From positions 14,252-78,251 of the forward strand of contig CAAERO010000019.1 of assembly GCA_900758495.1 (NCBI GenBank): a stretch of 64,000 bases of DNA, read 5' to 3'. A model generated the notes under the pieces. The model did not search any database. It saw only the letters and a program-made list of their open reading frames with translations, and was not told where the DNA came from. A program made the position numbers and the translations under genes. Of the stretch, positions 1 through 26,702 are shown piece by piece (within the stretch, counting starts at the first letter, position 1; the number at the start of each line of letters is the position of its first letter). The DNA comes from Bacilli bacterium (GTDB taxonomy: Bacteria > Bacillota_I > Bacilli_A > RF39 > UBA660).

Positions 1-1492
1 CAATTATATCGTAATAGTTTTCAAAGCCCTAAAAACGCTTATAAACAAATGTAGAACCTAAAGAATTAGTACCTGACTAATCGTGATCATAAGGGTCTAC
101 TCCAAGTATATATAAACCAATAGGAGCATCTTTTACAGGATGTTCCCATATTACTATAGAACCAGTAGGATCATCGTCTTTACCTAGTGGGTATTTAGTA
201 ATATCACCTTGTTTCTTTACTATCCACTTTAAGGATCCATCAGATTCCCACACTAAATCCCCTATTTGTTTATGGTTGGTTAACTTCTTATTAGTGCGTA
301 TTCTTGCTAATTGTTCTTGTAGTTCTTTCTTAGGAAATATGTTACCATTGAATTCCAAACACGCTTCAGCAGGAGTAATAGGACGTTCCGCAATATATCT
401 ATCTACGGCTACAGAATTAGTAGAATTCTCAATAACTATCTTTCTTTCAGACAGTATATACTCCCTTGCTTTATAGGTCAGAGTATTACCATCATTATCC
501 ATATACAGACGATTACCTTTATCGTCACGTATATCCATGTTGGCATACTAAGGTATAAAGAATCCGCATTTAGTGTTGTCTACTGCTTCATCCCAGATGT
601 TATTAAGTTCGAGGCAATTAAATCCTTTTGGCTTATAAAACATCTCTTTAAGTGTAGCAAAGTTAGAATCCGTATCACCACCTGTACCATATGCAATCAT
701 AGTACCAAATGCTATACCGTCTGTCTCTACAGAAGGTCTAGCAATTTGCCATGCCGCACTTAATTCTTTAAAAGAACCGGCCTCTTCAAACATAATAAGA
801 TTAGCAATCTTACCACGTACTACATCTGGATTATCTTTCAAAGTAACTCCAATGATTTCAGACTTATAACCTACTTCAATCTTATTACCGTATTCATCAG
901 TAACCCACATACCTGCTCTACGTCTAAGCTGAGTACTAACAGATCTCTTTTTACTCCATGCAGTATGTTCGTCAATAAAGTCCATGTAACCCCAAGCTTT
1001 AGTAAGAGTACCATCATCTGTCAAATACTATTTATTAGATGCATATACATATGACTTAGAATCAGGTATTAAATAGTAATTACGACATAGCATAGCAGCA
1101 CATTTGTATGAGTAACCCTTACGTCTGGATTTCAATACACACAAATGTTTACCCTCTTCTTTGCATTGTTCTACACATTGGAAGTAGTAATAGTCATAAT
1201 CCCAGAAATCAGGGAATGTAACAATGTGTTCTGATTTATTCTTACCATCCACTATACGATTAACCTAACGATAAATAGGACAGTAATTTAAATAAAAATA
1301 GTTATAGCCACTAATGAAATCTCCATCATCAGCAGTATAACCATTAATACATTTCTGCTACTCTTCCTACCAGAAACGCATATATTCAGCCGTACCTTTA
1401 GGGTACGGACAATATGAGCCAGTTGCTATAAACTATAGTGCTGGCTTTCTAAATTTATTACTATTTAATATCCTTTTGTTAAAATCGACCAT
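1..1492 (-). CDS. terL: Terminase large subunit (TerL); C-terminal part runs off the left edge; needs TAG read as sense
   Basis: Track fragments 77..538, 548..1024 and 1028..1252 share one frame and are separated only by TAG (cta on + strand at 77, 548, 1028). The frame stays open up to ATG at 1492 across 4 more TAGs (PAL*FIA, FW*EE*QKC, IYR*VN) and down to base 2 across a TAG at 29-31. Terminase-like motifs: LKSRRKGYSY, LIMFEEAGSF, GVDPYDHD. Confidence 0.85.
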
Positions 1493-1500
1493 GTTTAACT

Positions 1501-1535
1501 ATAATAAAAGGGGCACGTTTCACAACGGACCCCTT
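1501..1535 (-). terminator. Possible intrinsic terminator between the suppressor tRNA and terL
   Basis: GGGG (1510-1513) pairs with CCCC (1530-1533), with flanking A/T pairs. On the minus strand the hairpin is followed by UUUUAUUAU. Confidence 0.4.
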
Positions 1536-1733
1536 CTCTTCAAACCTTAAAACATTTTTATGAAAAAATTTAAAATTAGTGCAAAAAGCACTAGAATAGC
1601 TCTCTAGGTTATACCAGACCCTAGGAACTGGCCGACTTACGATTCGGACCTTCATTAGCTGTGTTTACTGTTAATTACTCAGTAAGTGACTTAGGTAGTT
1701 ACGTTGTATGCGCGCCATACTTCAGTTAGTTAT

Positions 1734-1808
1734 TGGTAGCCCCACTAGGATTCGAACCCAGACTAAGAGGGTTAGAGCCTCCTGTGCTAGCCATTACACC
1801 ATAGGGCA
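1734..1808 (-). tRNA. Amber suppressor tRNA, anticodon CUA (reads UAG); probably Gln-type
   Basis: The reverse complement folds as a cloverleaf: acceptor (U)GCCCUA / UGGGGC(U), U8 G9, D arm GUGU-AAUGGCUA-GCAC, anticodon arm GGAGG-CUCUAAC-CCUCU, variable UAGU, T arm CUGGG-UUCGAAU-CCUAG, A73, encoded CCA (tgg 1734-1736). The anticodon is the complement of + strand tag at 1773-1775. Confidence 0.85.
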
Positions 1809-1869
1809 GTAAGACGTGGCTTCTTTTTAGACGCTCCACGTAACGTCGCTGATTGAATATGTTTTAACC

Positions 1870-2028
1870 TTATTTCTTAAACCAACCTTTGATACGTTTG
1901 GTAATTCTCTTATACCAAGGCTTAATTACCTGGCGTGCAGCTTCACATTCTGCAATTGCTTCTTCTACTGTCTTATTATCATCTGTCAGATCTACTATTA
2001 TGTCTGGCAGTTCATTAGTCTTTTTCAT
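1870..2028 (-). CDS. Small hypothetical protein (52 aa, below the track cut-off)
   Basis: ATG at 2028 to TAA at 1870-1872: MKKTNELPDIIVDLTDDNKTVEEAIAECEAARQVIKPWYKRITKRIKGWFKK. Fills the gap between neighbouring co-oriented genes. Confidence 0.45.
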   Translation of the reverse strand: MKKTNELPDIIVDLTDDNKTVEEAIAECEAARQVIKPWYKRITKRIKGWFKK

Positions 2029-2085
2029 AATCTCTTAAATTTGTTTATCTAAACGATAGTGTTATTTTTTTGTATCTCTGCAGTG

Positions 2086-2625
2086 TTATTTTCTAACACC
2101 AGTTGGTAATTCGAAAGGATTAATCTTAGCATCACCTTTAACCCTAGTAGTATCCATTTCTCCAGCTTTAACTGCTTTTTCCAAGAAGTCTAAAGTAACA
2201 TATGTATCTTTTACTTTAGCAAATCCTGCTAAGTATTTTTCTATCTTCTTTTCATCTAGTTCCTCTTCAAGACTATCGTGATAGTATTGAGTAAAAGTAT
2301 CTAGTTTGAGTCTAATACTATTTAACATTGCAAGAGTACGAGTATATTGTAATCTCTTAAATGTATCTTCAGCTATTAGTTCATCTGGAGTAAGTTGATA
2401 ACCTTCTGGGAAAAATTCTTTCTTTAATGCTTCTTCTAAGATATCCTCGGTCATACTAAGTACATATGGGCTATCCCATTTATTCTTAAAGACTATATAA
2501 CTGATAACTGCTATAGCATGTTGTTTATCAGCCTTGTCTTTTTCCCATATTTTCTTAAATGCTGGAATAGCTAATGCATCTTCGTGTATTGTTACATTAC
2601 CACCTAGAATATCAAATAATTTCAT
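2086..2625 (-). CDS. Hypothetical protein (179 aa)
   Basis: Intact standard-code ORF ending in TAA, co-oriented and tightly packed with its neighbours. No family recognised by eye. Confidence 0.7.
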   Translation of the reverse strand: MKLFDILGGNVTIHEDALAIPAFKKIWEKDKADKQHAIAVISYIVFKNKWDSPYVLSMTEDILEEALKKEFFPEGYQLTPDELIAEDTFKRLQYTRTLAMLNSIRLKLDTFTQYYHDSLEEELDEKKIEKYLAGFAKVKDTYVTLDFLEKAVKAGEMDTTRVKGDAKINPFELPTGVRK

Positions 2626-2637
2626 TAATAGTCTCTT

Positions 2638-3015
2638 TTATACTCTTTTTAAATTAGAACAAGGTTCTTTACATTCACAAGGTTCATCTTTTCCTGATTG
2701 CTCTTCTTTATATGCTGCTACTTGTTCTTTAATCTCAAGTATTACGGCTAATAATTCAGGTGAATCAAATACAATAGGACGTTTGATATATTCACCTTCC
2801 CAATTACGAATTAAACCAATAATTTGCCCTTTCTTATAGGGGATATATCCTCCTACGCCATTATTAGTTATCTCATCAATGATAATTCTACCATCGTCCT
2901 CAGCGATTTTAATATCACTAAGTTCATAACATGATCGTTCACTTTTATACTTAAGATCTTCAAACGAATCTCCTATTAATGTAAAGTCTAAGTTTTTTCC
3001 AATTATAGTTTCCAT
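2638..3015 (-). CDS. Hypothetical protein (125 aa)
   Basis: Intact ORF, 12 nt from the downstream gene start, same strand. Confidence 0.7.
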   Translation of the reverse strand: METIIGKNLDFTLIGDSFEDLKYKSERSCYELSDIKIAEDDGRIIIDEITNNGVGGYIPYKKGQIIGLIRNWEGEYIKRPIVFDSPELLAVILEIKEQVAAYKEEQSGKDEPCECKEPCSNLKRV

Positions 3016-3092
3016 ATTAATCTATTCTATAACTTGTATAATATTCTTTTTGTAATCGTGCTAGAATTACTCTAGCTTGTTTCTCAGAGCAA

Positions 3093-3911
3093 TTAGGATT
3101 TACATATTCTGGATCCATTTGATACTTCTCTATCATTCTTTGATAAATCTCCATTTCCTGTTCCAGACTTTCCTTTGTTATATTCATCTTCATATCTCCT
3201 TATCAGATTATTAACTAATATATTTAGCGTATGAAAATCTGTACTACCTGTAAAATGTACACAAGGTATTACATCTTTATCGATATTAATTCCAAATATA
3301 TCTTTCTGTATATCTCCTAATGAGCTAATGTCATAATATACATCGTGATTTCCGTCATTATTTCTGCATATATACTCAGCTTTGATATTATAGCGGTTGT
3401 AAGTTCTATTGCTTAACTCATGCCCTAGATTATCAAGCTTTTCTCTTATCTCAGATTCTTCCTTTTTTTGACACTCCTCAATATTTTCTCTATTTTTATG
3501 TTCCTTTTCAGAAATCATACTATCTATATCGAGTATATCTAATAAGCTATTGCAATCATCAATCTTCTTAGATATGCGGTTATTGAGTTTGTCAATTAAG
3601 GATTCCTGAGTTTCTCCGTGCTTACTGCAGTAGAGCATTGCTATGGCATTCCAAGCTACTTGTGCAAGATGTCTACAACCGGTTTCGTTGTCCATCTCTT
3701 CTCCCTTTTCGAATAACACAAGATGTCTGAATAATGCGGCTTTATATCTAGAGTAACCATCTTTAAGTAACTGCCAAGTATTGACTCCGTACTTCTTTGA
3801 TCCTTCAGTATATACTTTAACGATATCTTCTAATTCTTCTAGAGGCAATAAATCCCATCTGAGTTTATTATCTTTAAAGTCATTCTTTATCCCCTGTTTC
3901 ATATTTATCAA
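3093..3911 (-). CDS. Protein with an N-terminal DUF5664-like (dATP/dGTP diphosphohydrolase N-terminal type) domain; C-terminal half unassigned
   Basis: RWDLLPLEELEDIVKVYTEGSKKYGVNTW ... FRHLVLFEKGEEMDNETGCRHLAQVAWNAIAML matches my recollection of this phage domain. The family assignment was not verified. Confidence 0.5.
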   Translation of the reverse strand: MINMKQGIKNDFKDNKLRWDLLPLEELEDIVKVYTEGSKKYGVNTWQLLKDGYSRYKAALFRHLVLFEKGEEMDNETGCRHLAQVAWNAIAMLYCSKHGETQESLIDKLNNRISKKIDDCNSLLDILDIDSMISEKEHKNRENIEECQKKEESEIREKLDNLGHELSNRTYNRYNIKAEYICRNNDGNHDVYYDISSLGDIQKDIFGINIDKDVIPCVHFTGSTDFHTLNILVNNLIRRYEDEYNKGKSGTGNGDLSKNDREVSNGSRICKS

Positions 3912-4155
3912 TCAACTTTTGACAGATATCGTTAACTACTTTTTCTCTCTTCTCTAATGAAGAATCATCTTCGTCAGATACTTCTTCCAATCCCTTCATC
4001 ATATCTTCTATAAAGTCAAAGTATGATATCTTATCAGCTTCAACTGCCTTTTCTACAGAATTTAGTAACTTCTGTATGATTTCGGGGGCTTCCTTAGAGT
4101 TTTCTCTCTCTAGCTTAAGTAAGTGTAGAGAGGTTTCTTTATCTATTTTATTCAT
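3880..4155 (-). CDS. Hypothetical acidic protein (91 aa)
   Basis: Intact ORF overlapping both neighbours by a few codons, as expected in an operon. Confidence 0.6.
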   Translation of the reverse strand: MNKIDKETSLHLLKLERENSKEAPEIIQKLLNSVEKAVEADKISYFDFIEDMMKGLEEVSDEDDSSLEKREKVVNDICQKLIDKYETGDKE

Positions 4156-4573
4156 TATCTCTTATATAGTCTATCATGTATTGACCTATCTTACCGGCTA
4201 CCCATCCTACTAAATATGCGTAAGGTTCGTTTCTTTCATCAAAAGATTCTGCACGAGCTCCAATTAATTGCCATATTGCATCAGTAATATGTGTTGACTC
4301 ATGTGCAATTGTATTGAATAGAAACTCACTTATAGCTCCATTGCTATCTTCATCTAGGAAAGTTATAACTCCTTTATAACCACTTTTTCTTTCCTTTACT
4401 AAGAAGGTAGTTGCTGCTGAACCCATTGGATCTGCTGGTATGCCATCATCATCAATCAACATATCTTGTACAGTTCCATAGAACTTGAATCTCTTCTTAC
4501 TATTGTAAAAGTCAGATATTGTACCGATATACAATGACATGGGATAAAGGTCTAAATCATACTTTCTAATCAT
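4148..4573 (-). CDS. Putative zinc metallopeptidase-like protein (HExxH)
   Basis: Intact 141-aa ORF containing NTIAHESTHITDAIW, an HExxH motif in a helical context. Confidence 0.5.
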   Translation of the reverse strand: MIRKYDLDLYPMSLYIGTISDFYNSKKRFKFYGTVQDMLIDDDGIPADPMGSAATTFLVKERKSGYKGVITFLDEDSNGAISEFLFNTIAHESTHITDAIWQLIGARAESFDERNEPYAYLVGWVAGKIGQYMIDYIRDNE

Positions 4574-4826
4574 CTTTTATTGCTTTATATATGTTCGCTA
4601 CCGCTTTATTACTAAGTAAATACAGATATAAGTAAACATCATCTGTCATTTTATAAGTAACGCTAGGAGTTATGATTTCATTAGAGACATCATTTAACTA
4701 TACTTCACAAGTATCTTTATTACCAGTAGGATATGATAGTTTAAAGTATACCATATACTCAATTAATTCTGTAACTATGTCAATCTCTGGTATCTTTGTC
4801 AGTCTAATTATCTTTCTATCTCTCAT
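4557..4826 (-). CDS. Possible small ORF that needs TAG read-through (about 89 codons)
   Basis: ATG at 4826, in-frame TAG at 4698-4700 and 4566-4568, TGA at 4557-4559. It would fill an otherwise empty 400-nt gap. Without read-through it encodes only 42 aa. Confidence 0.3.
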
Positions 4827-4972
4827 GATTCTTCTTTATCTTTATCTTACCTAAGTAAGTAAACATTAAGGGTTTTTCATCTCTCTAGCTTATTTTCCTG
4901 TTAGCAAACAGGAATGGGTGAGTACATATTGTTTTTATTACCTAAGTAGGTAGGTTATACTTCTTACTTAAC

Positions 4973-5401
4973 TCAATAAATATATTCACTCCAGTTTTGT
5001 TCATCAGCTAAATCCTTAATAGTGTAATACTTATTATCAAGGAAAGCATCCAAATCCTTAGTATTCTCAAAGGTATCAGGTCTAACACAATTAATAGCTG
5101 TAAATAGATCTGCTACTGTAGCTTTATTAGAAGACAACCAATCACCTTCTTCCTTACTAGAATCAACAATAGTATTCAATCTCTTAAGTTCCTTTTTACT
5201 ATAAGCCTTCTTAGGTTCTGCTACTACTGCATCTTTACGCTCACCTTGAATACTAACTAGATCACAATCATCTGTAAATATAATAAACTTATTATACTTA
5301 AGATTCTTCTTTCTAATCTTGTACCAGAGTTTTACTATCCAATTATAATCTCTTTGTAATAGGATAGAACCTGGTTTAATTGACATATATTCCATATTCA
5401 T
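4973..5401 (-). CDS. Hypothetical protein (142 aa)
   Basis: Intact ORF whose start abuts the stop of 5403..5672. Confidence 0.7.
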   Translation of the reverse strand: MNMEYMSIKPGSILLQRDYNWIVKLWYKIRKKNLKYNKFIIFTDDCDLVSIQGERKDAVVAEPKKAYSKKELKRLNTIVDSSKEEGDWLSSNKATVADLFTAINCVRPDTFENTKDLDAFLDNKYYTIKDLADEQNWSEYIY

Positions 5402-5402
5402 A

Positions 5403-5672
5403 TTATTCTCTGTCTAGTCGTAATACGATAGTAATTTGTACTCTATCTCCAATCACTTCAGGTATCAAAGCAGGATTAACCATCCATTCATCATCTGCTT
5501 TACCCTTAACAATCAGACCTTTATCTCTTAATCTTCCTATATATCTACTTAGATTATCACCTGTAATGCCTGTTGCGGCTTTTAGATAACGTCTGTTTTC
5601 TGTACTTATAACATTCTTACTGTAACCAGGGAGCTTTGGAGTATTAATATCTAATTCAATGAGTAATACCAT
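5403..5672 (-). CDS. Winged-helix/HTH DNA-binding protein (putative transcription regulator)
   Basis: NRRYLKAATGITGDNLSRYIGRLRDKGLIVKGKADDEWMVNP looks like a MarR/wHTH recognition helix plus wing. Confidence 0.55.
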   Translation of the reverse strand: MVLLIELDINTPKLPGYSKNVISTENRRYLKAATGITGDNLSRYIGRLRDKGLIVKGKADDEWMVNPALIPEVIGDRVQITIVLRLDRE

Positions 5673-5797
5673 TATATCCTGCTCCCTGTCAGTAAGCTAA
5701 AGTACGCCATCAAGCGATCTGAGGAATTCTCGATAAAGATCCGTTTTCTTAACTGTTTTAACTAATTTGTTCATTTATTCGGATCCCTATTACGAGT

Positions 5798-6214
5798 TTA
5801 TTCATTAATAATATCTTTAATCTTGTTTAATACTTTAGTAAGGTTATAATAAACTGTATCAGCTTCTACTTTAACACAAGTAGGTACTTCTTGATTATTA
5901 TAAGCCTCTTCGAGTTTCTTGTGATCTGTTTCGTACTGTTCTAAGAGACTATCAATCGTATTGGCAATCGTATCAAGCTTGTCTGACATCTCTTCCAACA
6001 AAGTATCGTCACAGCTACATTCGTCCTCATCATCGAGTACAATGAGATAGCCCTCATCAACATATTCATCACAAGTATCTTTATCCATAAACAAAGCACG
6101 TTCACTCGTTTCGTCTTTAAAATAGAACTCAAACATTTCTGTTTCATCATTCCAAGTAAGGATATTACCTTTCTTACCACAAGCAAACTCTTTTACTACT
6201 TTATACTGTACCAT
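5798..6214 (-). CDS. Hypothetical acidic protein (138 aa)
   Basis: Intact ORF. The overlapping same-strand track ORF 5941..6186 is in another frame and is rejected. Confidence 0.65.
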   Translation of the reverse strand: MVQYKVVKEFACGKKGNILTWNDETEMFEFYFKDETSERALFMDKDTCDEYVDEGYLIVLDDEDECSCDDTLLEEMSDKLDTIANTIDSLLEQYETDHKKLEEAYNNQEVPTCVKVEADTVYYNLTKVLNKIKDIINE

Positions 6215-6323
6215 AATAATTATTATTTTTAATTGTCTTAATAGTTGTTACAATTACATAAACGTGAAGTGTTAAAAAGGTAACTATATTTTAACATTTG
6301 TTAACTATTTAACTTAATGCAAT

Positions 6324-6351
6324 AAAAAAGGCTAGATCCGCAGACCTAGCC
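6324..6351 (-). terminator. Intrinsic terminator after the GroES-like gene
   Basis: GGCTAG (6330-6335) pairs with CTAGCC (6346-6351). An A6 run at 6324-6329 on the + strand gives a U-run after the hairpin on the minus strand. Confidence 0.65.
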
Positions 6352-6380
6352 CCACAACAACTATTAATACGCATTAATAC

Positions 6381-6746
6381 TTATTTCTTAACTTTCTTTG
6401 CAACACAATCATAAGATTTTACCAGCATACTATCTTTGAATAAATCAAAGTCTTTAGCAAATTTCTTATTAAATACAATAGTATCTCCTACTTCAAATTT
6501 GAGGAGAGTAGAGTCTAGATTAGACCCAATTGCAAGTACGATACCGGTTCTCCACTCTGATTCAACTTCTTTTACTTCAGTCTTAGTATCAAACTTCTCA
6601 TAACCGTCTACGTCTTTTTCACCTGTACCAACTGCTTCAGTAACTTCTTTCTTTAACATAATAGGCGCAAGAGGTTTAACTAAGATATCCTGCAGAGGAG
6701 TATATTCTAAACCGTTAACTACTGTTTCAAGTACTTTATCTTCCAT
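6381..6746 (-). CDS. GroES-like co-chaperonin (Hsp10 family-like)
   Basis: ILVKPLAP ... TGIVLAIGSN ... FEVGDTIVFNK ... SMLVKSYDCVA follows the GroES pattern (IxVKP, GIVL, VGDxVxF), with an expanded loop. Confidence 0.5.
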   Translation of the reverse strand: MEDKVLETVVNGLEYTPLQDILVKPLAPIMLKKEVTEAVGTGEKDVDGYEKFDTKTEVKEVESEWRTGIVLAIGSNLDSTLLKFEVGDTIVFNKKFAKDFDLFKDSMLVKSYDCVAKKVKK

Positions 6747-6767
6747 ATATTTTATAACGTATAATTT

Positions 6768-6941
6768 TTATCTTTGTTCTATTAATTTCAGTATGTTTCC
6801 ACCCCAAATACAATTCCTTAAAGCCTTTGGGACACAATGTCTGGTATAGAAATAACAGCCGTCACAGCTACCATTGTCTGTCTTAACTACTTCAAATTTC
6901 TTACCTAGAATCTCTACTACTTTATTTTCTTTTGTTGGCAT
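6768..6941 (-). CDS. Small Cys-rich protein (57 aa), paralog of 7026..7226
   Basis: ATG at 6941 to TAA at 6768-6770: ...SCDGCYFYTRHCVPKALRNCIWGGNILKLIEQR. Same C-x2-C ... C ... C ... G-x-IL-K/R-x-IE pattern as the neighbouring ORF. Confidence 0.5.
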   Translation of the reverse strand: MPTKENKVVEILGKKFEVVKTDNGSCDGCYFYTRHCVPKALRNCIWGGNILKLIEQR

Positions 6942-7025
6942 ACTTCTTAAAGTTTAGTATAACCTGATATATTGCATGTACTATACCACCACCAATTATC
7001 AAGCCTATCCAGAATTCTTCTTTCA

Positions 7026-7226
7026 TTATAACTCTATCTTTCTAAGTATATAACCCTGTCTACACAATTGTACAATTCTATCTGGACAGCTATTATTATA
7101 TAAAGCACAACCTTTACAATACTTCTGAGAAGTATCTGTTTGTACTAATTGATAAGTGTTTCTATTATGATTTATGTACATACCTGAGTATGCCTCTATT
7201 TTATTAACTACTTTTCTTTTTCCCAT
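7026..7226 (-). CDS. Small Cys-rich protein (66 aa)
   Basis: ...YCKGCALYNNSCPDRIVQLCRQGYILRKIEL; intact ORF. Confidence 0.6.
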   Translation of the reverse strand: MGKRKVVNKIEAYSGMYINHNRNTYQLVQTDTSQKYCKGCALYNNSCPDRIVQLCRQGYILRKIEL

Positions 7227-7425
7227 AATACGTATTATATATACTTTAACTAAGTAAAGACATTATCTAAAGTAAGGACTATTAATACTGTCTAATCTGT
7301 CTTAGACTGTCTTTAACTGTATAGACAGTAACGTATAAAACACTACTTAGGTTCCCTTTTATATTAACTTTTTAACATTTATTAAGAACAATTATGGCTA
7401 TTTAACACACAAAATTTAACATTTT

Positions 7426-7887
7426 TTAAGATAATAATTTCTTTACCTTCTCCTTACTCTGATAACAGGTTATAAAATGCAGATGCCGGTATTCCCCTTT
7501 TGCTTTAATCTTTATTATATTTATCAATCTCTTACTAGGATCTACTGCGATAGATTGGTCAACTAACTGTGCCTTAGCTATTCGTTTGGCGAATATCCTA
7601 ATTCTACCTATATCATCTCTTTTACATCTTCTGAGATATCTTTCATTAAACCTATTTACATAGTGTTCACAACAGTGAAATATTACTATTTCATCTGTAC
7701 TCATATCATGATACCAGCCGGAAATCTCTTTACTGAAATTAGTAAAGTATACCTTATAAATCAGTTCACGGCCGGCTCTTATATTGACAACAATTATCTT
7801 AGTGTTATCAACAGTAACCTCTACATAGGGGAGCGAATCTATACTATCCCCTATCTTCTGTATATAATAATGTGGATCGTATTTCAT
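7426..7887 (-). CDS. Hypothetical protein (153 aa); first gene of the leftward block
   Basis: Intact ORF. A divergent intergenic region lies upstream. Confidence 0.7.
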   Translation of the reverse strand: MKYDPHYYIQKIGDSIDSLPYVEVTVDNTKIIVVNIRAGRELIYKVYFTNFSKEISGWYHDMSTDEIVIFHCCEHYVNRFNERYLRRCKRDDIGRIRIFAKRIAKAQLVDQSIAVDPSKRLINIIKIKAKGEYRHLHFITCYQSKEKVKKLLS

Positions 7888-9902: not shown

Positions 9903-10663
9903 CTTCTTTAATGCGACCAACGTCAGTGACAAGTCTGATAAATGCAGAGTCAAAGAAGCTATTACAGTTTATTATGCACAAATAGATTATAATAGTAAAA
10001 CCACGTGGTAAGGGCACAGTTAGGTTCGCTGTGAGTGCGCCCTTTGTAGCAACTAACCAAAGCAAGTATAGATGGGAATAAGCTATTACCTCGATAGGCT
10101 TAATGAGGTGCTTGACAGTCTGACACTAACTGAACAATAAGTGTCAAATAACTCTCTACTGAATCACAGGCTCGAGACGTTTAAGAGTTAGCGTGTGTAG
10201 GTAGAGAGTTCTTTAAGGTGAGAATCCTTGACAAGCATGTGGGGCTTATATCTATCTATAAACAAGGAGACGGACTAATTTTTATTAGTACAAGGAGTCG
10301 GTTATAGTAGTATTAGTGCAGACTTTAAAATCATGCAGTATAACAATCTTCCATATACTAATGCAATAGTGAACTTCTGAATCATGTTATACTTATTAGT
10401 CCTAAGCGTAGGATAGTCCTCAACTTATTATGTTCCGTTAGCTTAATATGGATTTGTGGAATACTAAGAGTAGTATTGCTAGTATGTTTATATGTGAATA
10501 TAGGTATACTAGTTGCACTCATAAGGCAGCCTTCACGTGGCGAGTGTGTTAAGTAATAGGTTAAATAAATCTTCCAGTTTGTACCTATGAAAACTAATGC
10601 CTTATAAAATTAGTCAAAGTCTTTTATATCAATATATATTGTTTAATTAAAATTATCAAAATT

Positions 10664-10930
10664 ATGAGACAAAGTGTAATTAATTACGTGAAAGAGAATG
10701 GTATTAAGTTAGCTGCTAATTCAAAGGCATTAAAACTTATCAACAACGGAGCATCCGAGGCAGAAGTAGCTGTAGCTTTGCAGACTACAAAGGCATATAA
10801 AGAGGATTCTACTCTTCGTCAGATGTGCCAAGAAGTTGTTGCTGAGGCTGGCAAGGAACAAGCTGACAGTGCTAAAAAACCAGAGAATCATTCAAATTCT
10901 GCTCGTAGAGGAGAAAATGAACGATACTAG
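10664..10930 (+). CDS. Hypothetical protein (88 aa); ends in TAG
   Basis: Intact ORF with the conserved TTATCAAAATT-ATG start context. A strong terminator follows. Confidence 0.65.
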   Translation: MRQSVINYVKENGIKLAANSKALKLINNGASEAEVAVALQTTKAYKEDSTLRQMCQEVVAEAGKEQADSAKKPENHSNSARRGENERY

Positions 10931-11007: not shown

Positions 11008-12303
11008 ATGACTAAGTGGCAAGAATCGTGCATTACAGCACTCGCTTCATCCCCAATGGCATGGGAAGCCTTTAAAATGAAGCAAAGAAACAGAAAGTTA
11101 TTATGGCAATATATAAATCGTATATGGCCATATAAACTGATTGCAGGAACGAAAGTAAATAAAAATAAGAAAGATCTTCTCGCTATTGCTAGAATACTAA
11201 AAAACCTATCATCTACAATTCAATATTATGTTCCAGGTATAGAAAGGGCAAGTTGTATAGAAGACGTTGATGTTCGATTTGATAAAGTAGACTGGCTTTG
11301 TATTAAAGATATTATATCGAAAGAAGATAGCGAATATAAAAGAATAGTTAGAGGAGCATATTGTGGCAATCACTTATTTTCTTTAGATTACACTTACCTA
11401 GATGATGATAATTTTGAAAGTTGGTGTATGTCTGGAGGCAATCATAATCTAATAGATGTTCTTAATACTTGTTTTGGGGAGTGTTATCTCCATGATCATT
11501 GTTATATAACTGGTATAAGATTTCATTCTAACATTACAAATACATATAATATGTTATTGCAAATGCAAGATGAAATAACTTATATTCTGTGTAAGATAGT
11601 TAAAACTATTGAAGGTGTTAAAGGTAATACTTTAAAGTACACCTTAAAAGACAGAAGAAAATATAATTCTTTAAATGTCGGTATTGAAATAGAACATGAT
11701 GCGGAATATCCTACACCAAATAAGATTCAAAGAGCTATCTTACTTAATAACTGTGTATCATATGATTCAGGTTATGATGGCAACTCTTCTAATAGGCTAC
11801 GAGAAAATCGTATTCGGTTAAATGGTATTAAAGGCTTAAAAGGCTTGTATATACTATTAACTAATATGAAAGAAAATTGTGCGATTGCCAAAAATAGTAG
11901 CGTACATATGCATATTGATTGTAAATATGACAACTTCTTTATGGATCGTAGTAAATTCTATAAAGGAAGTGAAAAAGATTGCATATATGGTATGGTAGAT
12001 GTTCTAGCTATTAGAATGAGTAAATATCAATCTAATACGGATAGTGCTTTGCAAATTATATCGGATATTGTAGAATATGAAGTTACTAGATATCATTTTA
12101 ATACTAGTGATTATACTAGATATGATAATGAATTTAACACTATAGAATATCGATTCGCGAAAATAAATTTTAACTATTCTGATTATGTTATACAAATTTT
12201 GACATTTATTCATATAACGGAGTGCATTAAGCATGATGCTCCGTTTAACATTCAGTATTTAGAGTTACTATATAAAGTAATGAAGAATCTGAATAATAAT
12301 TAG
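11008..12303 (+). CDS. Hypothetical protein (431 aa); ends in TAG
   Basis: Long intact ORF. Possible metal-site motifs (GIEIEHDAEYP, SSVHMHIDC) but no family assigned. Confidence 0.75.
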   Translation: MTKWQESCITALASSPMAWEAFKMKQRNRKLLWQYINRIWPYKLIAGTKVNKNKKDLLAIARILKNLSSTIQYYVPGIERASCIEDVDVRFDKVDWLCIKDIISKEDSEYKRIVRGAYCGNHLFSLDYTYLDDDNFESWCMSGGNHNLIDVLNTCFGECYLHDHCYITGIRFHSNITNTYNMLLQMQDEITYILCKIVKTIEGVKGNTLKYTLKDRRKYNSLNVGIEIEHDAEYPTPNKIQRAILLNNCVSYDSGYDGNSSNRLRENRIRLNGIKGLKGLYILLTNMKENCAIAKNSSVHMHIDCKYDNFFMDRSKFYKGSEKDCIYGMVDVLAIRMSKYQSNTDSALQIISDIVEYEVTRYHFNTSDYTRYDNEFNTIEYRFAKINFNYSDYVIQILTFIHITECIKHDAPFNIQYLELLYKVMKNLNNN

Positions 12304-14441: not shown

Positions 14442-14870
14442 AAATGTCCTTTATATTTAGTTATTGATAATTATTGCACTTGTTCGTGAGAATAGGTGCA
14501 ATTGCCTAAATGAATGTCTTCAGAAGATGACAAACCTGTGGGGCGTAAGTAATAAAGAGTCTGAAAGATTGCAGATAAGAGTATGCACTTATTGGCAATA
14601 TGCATACCAGAATAATTTATTATGATCGTGCGGACGTTAAAATCAGGTACTCCAATAAGATTTAGTTTTGCAGCTATTTCTGCTTATGAGTTAAAACTAA
14701 GCGAGAGCTTAAAATTGAAATTGAGACTATTCTAGTTTCGGTAAATAAGTAAAAAGCGTTTTACAAGTCTCTTATTAACAAGTGTAAGGTGGATATTAAC
14801 TGTTCAACAAAAAAATCCAGAATATCCTGGTCGTCGTCAATTGAGTTATTAACTTTTAAATATTTAAAAG

Positions 14871-16154: not shown

Positions 16155-16527
16155 CCCTAAACAAGTTAGTATGGTGCAGTCAACCCAAGCTACTATTTAC
16201 CAACCAAAACCCTAATGGAAGCTTAGAAATAAGCAAGAGTACAATGGACTATACAACGGTCAACCAGGTATTACTATCTAGGTCAGGTGAAGGAAAGGGG
16301 TTGCCTATGAATAAGGAATACGAATAAATAGGATAGTAGCATTAAGGGTATATAGCTTTGATCGGCTATATACCCACAATAAAAGTTAACTATAAAAATA
16401 GCAGGAGTATTGTATAACATAACGAAGGCCTACCTGTAGAGAGTGCTGTGAAATAGATTATTCTATGAAGTATGGCTTAATTCTGCACGCGAGTTATACT
16501 TTAGTTAACTTTAAAGAAATTGACTGT

Positions 16528-16578
16528 TAGGTCTATTGAATCGTCGTTTGGACACGGGTTCGACTCCCGTATGCTCCA
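16528..16578 (+). ncRNA. ssrA: tmRNA-like acceptor piece (3' half of the tRNA-like domain), located upstream of its 5' partner
   Basis: GGUCUAUU-GAAUC-GUCGUU, then UGGAC, T arm ACGGG-UUCGACU-CCCGU, 3' acceptor strand AUGCUCC and A73. This parallels the E. coli ssrA 3' end ...GGAC-GCGGG-UUCAACU-CCCGC-CAGCUCC-A. Confidence 0.65.
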
Positions 16579-16671
16579 CTATGTTCGTTCGACTCGAACC
16601 AGTGGCAGCTCCTGTGATGGGTAACTCTTCCTCATGTGTGAAATAACACAAATGGCAACTGAGCTGCAATC

Positions 16672-16813
16672 GGGGCATTATGGTTTTGACAGCGACATAG
16701 AGGAGATAGAATAGGTCAATAAGCAGATAACTGGCAATACAAGTTATGTAACAGATTACACTCGCTTAGTAGCGTGATAATCTGAACGGCTCGCCATTGT
16801 CGTAAAAGGCTGG
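16672..16813 (+). ncRNA. ssrA: tmRNA-like coding piece: 5' acceptor strand, P2 strand and tag reading frame
   Basis: GGGGCAUUAUGGUUUUGACAGCGAC parallels E. coli GGGGCUGAUUCUGGAUUCGACGGG. GGGGCAU pairs with AUGCUCC (16571-16577) and gives a G3:U70 pair. AGCGAC and AAUAGGUC pair with GUCGUU and GGUCUAUU of the upstream piece. Frame 16733-16774 encodes GNTSYVTDYTRLVA, followed by TGA TAA (16775-16780). The 3' boundary is uncertain. Confidence 0.65.
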
Positions 16814-16891
16814 GGTAAGTAGTTTCATAAGGCTTAGAAACGCTAACACTGATAAAGTTAGAAGAGGGAGGTTCGAATCCTCTCCTTACCA
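16814..16891 (+). tRNA. Non-canonical tRNA-like gene, possibly tRNA-Ile(GAU)
   Basis: Acceptor GGUAAG(U)/(C)CUUACC + A73, D arm UUUC-AUAAGGCUUA-GAAA, T arm GGAGG-UUCGAAU-CCUCU. The anticodon arm is CUAAC/GUUAG enclosing 9 nt (ACUGAUAAA). That can also be read as a canonical CUGAUAA loop (anticodon GAU, 16851-16853) closed by an A.A mismatch on a 6-level stem. A8 replaces U8, and 7:66 is a U.C mismatch. Confidence 0.5.
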
Positions 16892-18599: not shown

Positions 18600-19148
18600 A
18601 TGAAAGAAGAAGAAAAGCTTCTTGTAGAGCAAGCTAGAGAAGGTTCCGAAAAAGCTTTTAATACACTTTATAATAACTATTATAAAACAGTCTGGTATAC
18701 TGCTAACAATGTAGTACATAATTCAGATGCAGCAGATGATATAACATCTATGGTATTTACTAAAGTATATTTAAAGTTACAATCTTATACTAATCATATT
18801 TCATTTGAAATGTGGTTAAAGACAATTACAGTTAATACTGCAATTGACTATATAAGACGGAATAAAAAAGAGCAGTTAAATAACTATATTGATGATGAGG
18901 AGTCAAAGATTCAATTAAGCGGATTAGAACACAGTCCAGAAGATGATATGATATTTCAACAGAATATTAATATTGTTATGGAATGTATTCCTCGTCTTAA
19001 GAAAAAGTATAGAGATTTAATATATGCTCGACTTGATGGGAAATCCTATCAGCAAATTTCACAAGAGCTTGCCATACCAGAAGCAACAGTTAAAACCTGT
19101 TTAAATAAGGCAAGACAAAGACTAAAACAATTATTTAACCAATATTAA
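18600..19148 (+). CDS. ECF-type (group 4) sigma-70 family RNA polymerase sigma factor
   Basis: Region 2: AFNTLYNNYYKTVWYTANNVVHNSDAADDITSMVFTKVYLKL and SFEMWLKTITVNTAIDYIRRNKK. Region 4: LKKKYRDLIYARLDGKSYQQISQELAIPEATVKTCLNKARQRLKQL. Confidence 0.85.
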   Translation: MKEEEKLLVEQAREGSEKAFNTLYNNYYKTVWYTANNVVHNSDAADDITSMVFTKVYLKLQSYTNHISFEMWLKTITVNTAIDYIRRNKKEQLNNYIDDEESKIQLSGLEHSPEDDMIFQQNINIVMECIPRLKKKYRDLIYARLDGKSYQQISQELAIPEATVKTCLNKARQRLKQLFNQY

Positions 19149-21336: not shown

Positions 21337-23297
21337 TCTGCCGAAGATAAACGCAGACCGCTAATAGAGATGCACAAGCGGTATATAAGAGCTATAAGTG
21401 TAAAAATTCATTACTTGAGCCTGACTAAGCCGTGTGATGTGAGCAATACAGGATACTGAAATGTATAAGTAATAGCAAACACTATTCTATTTATACTATA
21501 GTATGATAACTTGTTGTGTTATAAAATTGTTCTATAACTGAAGAAGCAACAAGAAAATGGGAGAGCGTGCGTAACCCGTAAGTGAGAACCGACTGGTGAC
21601 TAAAAGACGCAGATGTGGAAGGAGCAGCTATCGCATCTAAACAAGGCAAAGGGGTATCGTTCACCTCTATACATATCCGTTTTAGCTATTTCAAAAGCAG
21701 AATCACGAAGGGATGTGAACACGTGCTGTATGTTGTCATTTAAATCTGAATCGACTAGCATTCTAGGGTAGTCTCCAAAACTCCCCTGTGCAGGGCGGTA
21801 ACCAATCCGTTGGCCAAAGAATACTAACCTAGTGTTTTACATATATTTAAAATCTTCACTCGTATCGAAGCGCATGATTCAATTGGGAATGGACATTATT
21901 TGTCTAAATATATGTATATAAAGGGGTAAATTATATAATAATGAGCAGAAATTGAGACAAGACATGGCTGAGTAGCAATGATCCATATAGAACTTCATTT
22001 GTATTGAAGCTATATGACTGATTAACTGGATTAGGTGCAAAACCTATACGCAATACAGTGAACGTAAGAGTTAGCTGTTTGGGAGAAATCCCTATGGAAA
22101 GTAAATTGCGTGTCTTACAGCTTGAGATATTTCATATATAGTTGCAATTACTATACTGTTTATGACAAATAAGCAGAATGAAGTTAAGGTTATTATATAA
22201 TAAAGTGACTTGTCAGTAATGTCACTATAAAATCTAACGTGCTTTGCACTGGAGTATAAACTGACTAGCGCCTGAAGTCCGCAATAAGACTATTGGTTGA
22301 TAGATATAGGATTAGTATAAATATATCTATTTCGAAAGAAAAGGGAGTGGGCCAGGACCACTATTAAAACTTGGAAAGTTGAAGTAAGGTTACTTTAGTA
22401 CTAAGGTTTGCTATAAATAATTTGGTAAGAGCTATGCACTCCAGCATAGAGCAGGATCTTACAAAGCATCCTAGAGGCCGACACGAAGCAGAGTGGAAGT
22501 AGTCTGTGTATTGCCTTAATAAGCAGCTTGCATATTAAAGAGAATATGAAGAAGGTAAGACTTATTAATGAGTGCCTACGCTGAATCGAACAGCTATAAC
22601 AAATAAGGAGAGTGTCAATATGTTCAACTTAAAAACAATAGGGAAGTTCAATGGTAGTAAGTTTGACAAGCTTACAAGCCACCCCGCTATCGAAGAACCT
22701 TGCTACATGAAATTTCGTAAAGTAATATGCGCAACATATTACCTAAGAAGATCGCTGAAACGATGCTTTAGTACCTCTCATTAGGGTATGTCGTTGAATG
22801 GTTGGAAATACCATGAGGTGAAGTAGTAACCCGAGATTTGTCGCAATGTCGGAAGTGAATTTGTCCGGAAGTGGGTGTCTTGAAAAATTAGACAGCTTTT
22901 GTAACAGTGTTTTAGTAACGTTTCTCAACAGAAACGACCCTCATTCGCTAGGTCCTATTTAGGATAAGAATGTTGTAATAGCTTATATGCCTGTAGACAT
23001 ACCAGTTGTCGATGATAGGCCCTGTATATTATACTAGTACAATACTTATGCTAGATTATATGATATATGGTACGGCGTTTTCGTATTGAAAGTTCAGCTT
23101 AACGTAAAAAAGGTCTGAATGAATAAGCAAGAGTTGATAGACTTTTTGTAAACAAATAATTCTATCTATAAACATACAGAGTATTTTTATAAATTGACAT
23201 ATTTTAATCGTTTAAGTGAAAGTAGATAGCAGAAGAACAGTTGACTCATACGTCTTATGAGTAAAGTCCTACGGGGAATACTGAGTATGAAGAATCA

Positions 23298-23437
23298 AGT
23301 AAATTACAGATTTTATCAGACATTAACAGATTTACAAGTAAACTTCAGAATATGCAATAGCATTACGATCTAGTAAGTGAGTTCTACTATACTTATACAC
23401 ATTAACAGTAAATTACAGATTTTATCAGACATTAACA
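23298..23437. repeat. Two identical 31-nt direct repeats 109 nt apart
   Basis: AGTAAATTACAGATTTTATCAGACATTAACA at 23298-23328 and 23407-23437. The core ACAGATTTTATC recurs at about 34750-34761. Confidence 0.85.
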
Positions 23438-23626
23438 ATTCGTCGTATTACTGAATACATTATTGAGATTAATTAACCTCTTTCAAAGCTTTATTAAAGC
23501 GGCTCTAAGAGACTGAGCAGGTTAGCAGAATAAGAGTAATACGCTAAATTTAAAAATTAGTATTAACAAAAAAATGATTGTATCTCGCTAAGAAATCAAT
23601 CTTAAAATCAAGTAGGAGATATTAAA

Positions 23627-26630: not shown

Positions 26631-26702
26631 TGTGGGGTGGAGCAGTGGTAGCTCGTAAGGCTCATAACCTTAAGGTCGTAGGTTCGAATCCTACCCCCGC
26701 AA
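26631..26702 (+). tRNA. tRNA-Met (anticodon CAU), initiator-like
   Basis: UGUGGGG-UG-GAGC-AGUGGUA-GCUC-G-UAAGG-CUCAUAA-CCUUA-AGGUC-GUAGG-UUCGAAU-CCUAC-CCCCGCA-A. Very similar to E. coli tRNA-fMet as I recall it (CGCGGGGUGGAGCAG..GGUAGCUCG..CUCAUAA..CCCCGCAA), but with a U1-A72 pair and only two G-C pairs next to the anticodon loop. Confidence 0.85.

Follow-up and report, generated by a model that had tools for sequence, protein, structure and literature searches.

Recoding of TAG from stop to glutamine in late genes, together with phage-borne suppressor tRNAs, has been described in delta crAss-like phages (PMC7886860), and metaproteomics reads TAG as Q in two crAss-like phages (PMC9523058). 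The gene for the suppressor tRNA (Sup-CTA) is usually found where the recoded strand block begins, at its 5' end (225/303 genomes; 10.1101/2022.06.29.495998). In the current model, early expression of code-change genes unlocks the late genes, and 'code change modules' stand upstream of recoded cassettes (Borges et al.). Both the placement rule and the TAG=Gln assignment are already published (Yutin 2021, Borges 2021, Pfennig 2022, Peters 2022), and the locus analyzed here is one more instance of them.

The window (the whole 64,000-nt stretch of DNA that was analyzed) agrees with the 2021/2022 model in having Sup-CTA at the 5' end of a recoded block, dual-coded early genes and a tRNA that would enable late translation. 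It departs from that model in two respects: the tRNA lies at an internal switch of a long minus-strand block, after 13 TAG-poor genes on the same strand, and one of these upstream genes already needs suppression. Jade phages, too, have standard-coded genes directly upstream of recoded late/lysis genes, in what Borges et al. call a 'code change module'. They, however, recode TGA to Trp and add TrpRS and RF1, whereas the window offers the tRNA alone, with no aminoacyl-tRNA synthetase or release factor, GlnRS and RF2 included, among the 43 proteins scanned. A cellular counterpart is E. coli supE (glnV), which like the window tRNA joins a tRNA-Gln-type body to a CUA anticodon; supE arose by point mutation of a cellular tRNA and suppresses weakly, whereas the phage tRNA is obligatory to the phage's code.

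The window belongs to a crAss-like phage (Crassvirales, Suoliviridae). Over its first 6 kb it shares 99% identity with MT836720, an unannotated fragment of a human-gut phage, and 83% identity, across the matching 48% of the query, with cr125_1 (Crassvirales, Suoliviridae, Uncouvirinae). On the minus strand, a block of small genes (7887-1870) is followed by the tRNA and then by terL (1492-2), which runs off the window. The plus strand carries a replication and regulation block (8106-40334), and a second minus-strand stretch (40351-63820), homologous to the virion structural region of cr125_1, holds five virion genes including one for a giant protein of 4504 codons. On the circular map this virion block, read from 63820 to 40351, is the distal, recoded end of the late region that terL begins. 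The upstream block (1870..7887, minus strand) comprises 13 small genes in an effectively standard code, with Pfam and PHROGs matches; its products include a dATP/dGTP diphosphohydrolase, a DUF7399 protein and a Cpn10-like protein. A terminator scan marks a terminator-like site within this block at 6328-6353, and a 52-codon gene at 1870-2028 had been overlooked by the first-pass annotation.

Several other features of the plus-strand block are recorded here in their own right. Known RNA structures cluster on the plus strand at 9957-10336, 14516-14648 and 16176-16343: a RAGATH-7 (170 bits), a pair of Hatchet ribozymes scoring 96.6 and 89.1 bits, and a RAGATH-9 (146.5 bits). The neighbouring ORFs have no Pfam match. 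A permuted two-piece tmRNA gene, also on the plus strand, occupies 16487-16868; ARAGORN calls it, and Rfam RF04321 scores it at 47.8 bits (cutoff 47). Its tag, GNTSYVTDYTRLVA, is terminated by TGA TAA (16733-16780), and a weak tRNA-like match (27 bits) lies 3' of the tag at 16814-16891. A ribosome-rescue RNA and stop-codon suppression in one phage make a notable pairing. Within the region 21340-23620 (2.3 kb), which has no ORF longer than 70 codons, a stretch of 31 nt is repeated perfectly and in direct orientation (23298-23328 and 23407-23437).

The suppressor gene itself is 75 nt long and lies on the minus strand at 1734..1808, with its CUA anticodon at 1775-1773 (sequence TGCCCTATGGTGTAATGGCTAGCACAGGAGGCTCTAACCCTCTTAGTCTGGGTTCGAATCCTAGTGGGGCTACCA). 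Its earlier description as an amber suppressor is borne out by ARAGORN and by the Rfam covariance model RF00005, which scores it at 54.8 bits (cutoff 29; E=4.7e-9) across model positions 1-71 of 71. The acceptor stem opens with the U1.U72 mismatch that had been reported together with A73, both of which are visible in the sequence; six good pairs, including G2-C71 and C3-G70, follow, and CCA is encoded. The D-loop has 8 nt (AAUGGCUA), the variable loop 4 nt and the anticodon loop reads CUCUAAC, and the canonical core nucleotides are all present (U8, G18G19, U33, the GTTCGAATC T-loop and the discriminator followed by CCA). In an alignment of 25 distinct phage tRNA versions and three Bacteroidales tRNA-Gln, the cloverleaf with stems of 7, 4, 5 and 5 bp is paired in 97.4% of cells and shows double changes at 16 of its 21 pairs, which none of 500 shuffles matched; the D-stem is invariant in this alignment as a product of the search pattern, which fixed it. 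Public wastewater contigs from several runs break or branch precisely at the edges of the gene (1729-1740 and 1813-1819), and the tRNA is a conserved island common to co-occurring phage strains with differing flanks.

ARAGORN labels this gene tRNA-Pyl. Genuine tRNA-Pyl has a short D-loop that lacks G18G19, a 6-bp anticodon stem and a 3-nt variable loop, and is accompanied by pylS and pylBCD. The label only reflects the CUA anticodon: the canonical G18G19 D-loop, the T-loop, the 5-bp anticodon stem and the 4-nt variable loop rule tRNA-Pyl out, and a scan of 43 window proteins turned up no Pyl genes.

The first TAG-recoded late gene is terL, the large terminase gene, of which the N-terminal 497 codons are visible (2..1492, minus strand; product 82% identical to that of cr115_1). 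It contains eight in-frame TAGs, and the five virion-block genes contain 26, 59, 11, 11 and 11 (118 in total), in keeping with the earlier statement that translation from terL onward needs TAG suppression. Taken together, the late genes have 126 TAGs in 8308 codons, and TAG makes up 33% of CAA+CAG+TAG. The counts are 1 TAG in 1657 codons (1/39 Gln-type codons) for the 13 upstream minus-strand genes and 0 in 7275 codons (0/229 Gln-type codons) for the plus-strand block. TAG is scarce as a terminator too, ending 2 of the 50 ORFs in the standard-code blocks, and the stop codons of the upstream block 1870..7887 are eight TAA and two TGA. Because TAG is avoided both inside genes and as a stop, the early, standard-code blocks read alike in both codes. 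The late genes of the window must be annotated with code 15. The sole TAG-ending ORFs of the standard-code blocks lie on the plus strand at 10664-10930 and 11008-12303; under suppression the former would gain 14 codons, up to a second TAG (26 if counted to the first TGA), and the latter 20.

The position of the tRNA is conserved among relatives. Nine recoded RefSeq Suoliviridae genomes (cr53_1, NC_055889; cr60_1, NC_055891; cr7_1; cr124_1; cr125_1; cr114_1; cr4_1; cr6_1; cr109_1) carry a tRNA(CUA), annotated as tRNA-Gln, at the same junction. The tRNAs of cr53_1 and cr60_1 are 93-95% identical to that of the window, and MT836720 matches it at 100%. As in the window, the anticodon is CUA and the gene follows the small-gene block and precedes terL or dUTPase plus tail genes. 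The interval to terL differs: relatives carry there a tRNA-Met and/or an HNH/homing endonuclease gene, whereas the window has a 241-nt non-coding spacer, and its own tRNA-Met sits at 26631 on the opposite strand. In the standard-code relatives cr10_1, cr1_1 and cr55_1 the junction holds no tRNA and terL no TAG. Scanning IMG/VR for the D-arm followed by CTCTAA returned 111 contigs, 49 of them Suoliviridae-like, and on these 49 the same-strand ORFs contain 2.6 TAGs per 1000 codons upstream of the tRNA and 14.6 downstream. The proposed location at the switch from TAG-free to TAG-rich genes is confirmed by these contigs, with a leak at one regulator gene.

Suppressors of other gut phage clades (contigs of 160-190 kb, and Lak phages) share with the window tRNA the D-arm, U1, A73 and the CUCUAA anticodon loop, and differ in having U1-A72 or U1.G72 in place of U.U. 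Among the other clades with a similar tRNA (the 160-190 kb contigs), no clean switch from TAG-free to TAG-rich genes was found at the tRNA. Six IMG/VR contigs (L020, L026, L049, L051, L080 and L103) have a tRNA(CUA) with the same D-arm that is longer by about 20 nt in the stretch from anticodon stem to T-arm; either a long variable arm or a small insertion may explain this.

The leak concerns a putative winged-helix transcriptional regulator (5403..5774, minus strand). All upstream genes from 2086 to 7887 had been described as intact in the standard code; this one has an in-frame TAG at codon 26 (5699-5697), which falls within the conserved N-terminus and is present in cr125_1 and cr115_1 as well. 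The protein has a weak MarR_2 match (E=0.0019), its RefSeq homologs are annotated as transcriptional regulators, and a PDB sequence search returned nothing significant. In this family 21 of 41 homologous loci contain one TAG, at codon 26, 40 or 85, each of which is Gln in close relatives, and the three sites were acquired independently. TAG occurs in 40 of 43 unique terL homologs, and the other upstream families are nearly TAG-free. As one upstream gene needs the suppressor, the tRNA is no strict border between codes.

Which amino acid the tRNA inserts can be approached from the proteins it would serve. At the terL alignment columns in which any phage has TAG, Gln accounts for 99 of 279 residues and the next commonest residue for 30. 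Four of the eight TAG sites in the window terL are invariant Gln in all three standard-code relatives, and some of the terL TAG columns show K, E or N in relatives.

The D-arm had been likened in the first-pass annotation to that of tRNA-Gln, and this argument stands in part. The D-arm is identical at 17/17 positions to tRNA-Gln(UUG) of Bacteroidaceae, Prevotellaceae and Porphyromonas, and within Bacteroidales the tRNAs with this D-arm are tRNA-Gln(UUG or CUG). As a general proof of Gln identity it fails, since His (51) and Arg (55) dominate over Gln (11) among 120 prokaryotic tRNAs with the same D-arm. Overall identity to the Gln, His and Arg tRNAs that share the D-arm is 54-56/72 for all three, so Gln is not separable from His and Arg by whole-body similarity. 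The D-arm argument holds for Bacteroidales alone, and there it has to be combined with U1, A73 and a position 20 other than A. These further features do agree: the window tRNA and Bacteroidales tRNA-Gln have in common U1, G2-C71, A73, an identical D-loop (GGCTA) and a variable loop of 4 nt. Bacteroidota tRNA-Arg has G1-C72 and A20, whereas the window tRNA has C20, and His tRNAs carry C73, unlike the A73 of the window tRNA.

Recognition by GlnRS can be considered in the same way. The E. coli GlnRS identity set consists of U35, G36, the discriminator and the pairs 1-72, 3-70 and 10-25; GlnRS tolerates A36 given U35 and acceptor features, and several amber suppressors are charged by it (PMC9976931). 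The window tRNA possesses U35 and the G10-C25 pair and deviates from the E. coli set at A36, A73 and C3-G70, the loss of G36 being unavoidable for any amber suppressor. A73 is also the discriminator of tRNA-Gln in Bacteroidaceae, Prevotella and Porphyromonas; that of E. coli tRNA-Gln is G73. At 2:71 and 3:70, relatives of the window tRNA switch to C2-G71 and U3-A70, and host tRNA-Gln has G2-C71 with U3-A70 or C3-G70. In the anticodon loop the window tRNA has C32 and A37 where host tRNA-Gln, unlike it, has U32 and G37, and this difference, which together with the open U1.U72 also sets the phage tRNA apart from supE, suggests that the suppressor is a dedicated one and not a newly arisen point mutant. 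With Gln at the terL TAG columns, Gln at the regulator TAG sites and the features shared with Bacteroidales tRNA-Gln, the suppressor probably inserts glutamine, as had been hinted.

The mismatch at the first acceptor pair is a trait of the lineage. Among 29 distinct phage suppressors with this D-arm, U1 and A73 are each present in 27, and at position 72 A occurs 12 times, U 9 times and G 6 times. Counted over the 25 phage versions and three host tRNA-Gln of the cloverleaf alignment, the 1:72 pair is UA in 12, UG in 6, CG in 1 and unpaired in 9; the host tRNA-Gln have U1-A72. All Suoliviridae versions have U.U, even those with compensatory swaps at 2:71 and 3:70, and its retention beside swapped neighbours marks the open first pair as a fixed lineage trait. 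The amidotransferase route recognizes U1-A72, and U1.U72 would not fit it (PMC9976931). A weak 1:72 pair counts among the features of tRNA-Gln identity, and the open pair may be linked to recognition by GlnRS.

One recoded relative seemed to have no suppressor. The terL of cr115_1 (L006, NC_055898) is recoded, and neither a default ARAGORN scan of the locus nor the annotation of the stretch shows a suppressor tRNA. At 4433-4733, at the same junction upstream of terL, we found a suppressor tRNA split by a 228-nt intron. Splicing as CTCT/intron...G/AAC yields an anticodon loop identical to that of the window tRNA, and ARAGORN calls the spliced sequence a tRNA(CUA), with U1.U72 and A73 again present and the intron inserted after U35. 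ARAGORN's own reading of the split gene, Ser(CGA), fails to give U before the 5' splice site and G at the intron 3' end; only the CUA split gives both, as group I introns demand, and the Ser(CGA) reading is rejected for that reason. Rfam reports a weak group I match to the intron (21.3 bits, E=0.0045; cutoff 50). The exons are identical in cr115_1 and in three contigs of about 101-102 kb (L244, L245 and L246), and the introns differ by a few substitutions. Undetected non-canonical suppressors are one open explanation for recoded phages in which no Sup-tRNA is called (PMC7886860). Split suppressors like this one may account for some of those 'missing' from surveys; we found no published description of an intron-split suppressor tRNA.

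The tRNA is flanked by predicted RNA structures on both sides. A 5' leader hairpin (ACGUGG...CCACGU; 1814..1841, minus strand) ends 5 nt before tRNA position 1. Many Suoliviridae lineages have a counterpart 4-6 nt upstream of the tRNA, built on other stems (AUGUGG/CCACAU, GAGGA/UCCUC, GUGGGG/CCCCAC and CCCGU/ACGGG; mean z about -1.9). Hairpins at the same place with different stems suggest a structural signal, which may serve in processing, termination or initiation.

On the other side, the 241-nt interval to terL (1493-1733) has a fold z of -3.7 as a whole. Its larger part is a structured spacer between the tRNA and the terL leader (1538..1733, minus strand), in the place where relatives have the tRNA-Met and/or homing endonuclease gene, and the cargo varies among cr125_1, cr60_1, cr109_1, cr6_1, cr114_1 and cr4_1. 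Rfam assigns the 241-nt spacer to no family, with sub-threshold matches only to terminator-like ends of Bacteroides sRNAs, and a consensus fold across five relatives gave nothing (-0.2 kcal/mol). A small spacer hairpin at 1626-1646 (minus strand) has a conserved loop, AUCGUAAG, on a stem that varies by compensation (CCGA/UCGG in the window, CUGG/CCAG in cr125_1 and CCUA/UAGG in cr60_1).

Directly before terL stands a conserved terminator-like hairpin (1497..1537, minus strand; dG -18.1 kcal/mol), with the core GGGGUCCGUUGUGAAACGUGCCCC at 1510-1533 followed by UUUUAUUAU. It has a 4+9-bp stem with one internal mismatch, a GUGA loop and a U-run, and it ends 13 nt 5' of the terL ATG. The 24-mer core (GGGGTYCGTTGTGAAACGYGCCCC) is found once in the window, against 0 expected, and once in each of 35 related loci; in those loci whose surroundings were examined it is downstream of the tRNA and just before terL, kept while the flanks diverge. 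The hairpin is conserved in sequence and displays no covariation. A simple terminator scan overlooked it. Among the standard-code relatives, cr10_1 carries another terminator-like hairpin in the corresponding position. With a G+C-rich stem-loop and a U-run it has the anatomy of an intrinsic terminator, and we treat it as a predicted terminator.

Promoter searches around the junction gave little. The exact Bacteroides -7 motif TAnnTTTG is absent from the minus strand between 795 and 3299, and a sigma-70 scan found 46 sites against 41 expected by chance. Several lineages have a motif resembling TTTTTCATRA 35-45 nt upstream of the hairpin; the candidate late-promoter motif ATTTTTTCATAA was set aside as no commoner in the window than chance. 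The standard-code block encodes an ECF-type sigma factor (18600-19148, plus strand; Sigma70_r2 E=9.7e-13, Sigma70_r4_2 E=1.1e-11), a candidate director of late transcription. RNA-labelled runs containing this sequence proved to be wastewater/virome contigs with flat depth over genes and spacers, which looks like DNA carry-over and says nothing on transcription.

We favour, with a probability of about 0.85, the reading that a dedicated tRNA-Gln-type phage amber suppressor decodes the UAGs of the late genes as glutamine by way of host GlnRS. The host glutaminyl-tRNA synthetase would charge the phage tRNA with glutamine, and the charged tRNA would read the UAGs that make up about one third of late-gene glutamine codons, in the genes for packaging, virion and giant virion proteins. 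Located at the 3' end of the TAG-poor block and directly before terL, the first recoded gene, the tRNA would also act in timing: late proteins would be completed only after it has been made, and early genes would be read the same in either code.

That the tRNA inserts some other residue strikes us as very improbable. Pyrrolysine is suggested by ARAGORN's label, Lys, Glu, Trp, Tyr, Leu and Ser are one anticodon change away, the His and Arg bodies are as similar as the Gln bodies, and K, E or N appears at some TAG columns. Against this, Gln is by far the commonest counterpart of TAG and the sole invariant one, and proteomics in related phages shows Q; U1, A73, C20 and U35 fit Bacteroidales tRNA-Gln and neither Arg nor His, and the G18G19 and T-loop, with no Pyl genes seen among the proteins scanned, are unlike tRNA-Pyl. 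Another proposal, made by Yutin et al. (PMC7886860), is that such a tRNA acts mainly on the host or on competitors by read-through of UAG stops in host or co-infecting phage genes, with recoding a tolerated by-product. The phage does avoid TAG as its own stop, and its tmRNA gene could handle ribosomes stalled after read-through. We nevertheless consider this improbable as the main function, because the one-third share of TAG among late Gln-type codons and its presence in nearly all unique terL homologs indicate that the phage itself depends on suppression.

A rival to the timing element of the favoured reading is co-transcription of the tRNA with terL and the late operon, which was considered possible in the first-pass annotation; the suppressor would then be made at the same time as the recoded mRNAs instead of serving as an earlier 'key'. 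The two genes are indeed on the same strand and 241 nt apart, as first described, with the terL ATG at 1492. The 13 nt after the hairpin leave no room for a promoter, so the terL mRNA must start upstream and include the hairpin, which requires either read-through from upstream or a promoter inside the spacer, and the exact TAnnTTTG is absent there. The conserved hairpin and U-run between the two genes nevertheless have intrinsic-terminator anatomy, relatives insert standard genes or another tRNA in this interval, the phage encodes its own ECF-type sigma factor, and the TTTTTCATRA-like motif could be a late promoter, although it occurs in the window at chance frequency. On balance we regard co-transcription as rather unlikely. 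In a more elaborate scheme the suppressor, instead of decoding passively, would start a two-layer late switch: the putative regulator at 5403-5774 would need the tRNA for its synthesis, and the hairpin 13 nt before terL would be the site of release for late transcription. This scheme is a long shot; were it true, the code change would feed forward into transcription. It is similarly speculative that, within this scheme, the fixed U1.U72 is an adaptation that leaves the acceptor end already open for GlnRS and compensates for the missing G36.

The window illustrates the published arrangement cleanly and with good controls: a suppressor tRNA sits at the code switch. It adds that the tRNA resembles the tRNA-Gln of the likely host in its acceptor end and D-arm, that an open 1:72 pair is fixed in one phage family and that the boundary between codes leaks at one regulator gene, and it draws in cr115_1, a 'suppressor-less' recoded relative that carries an intron-split tRNA.
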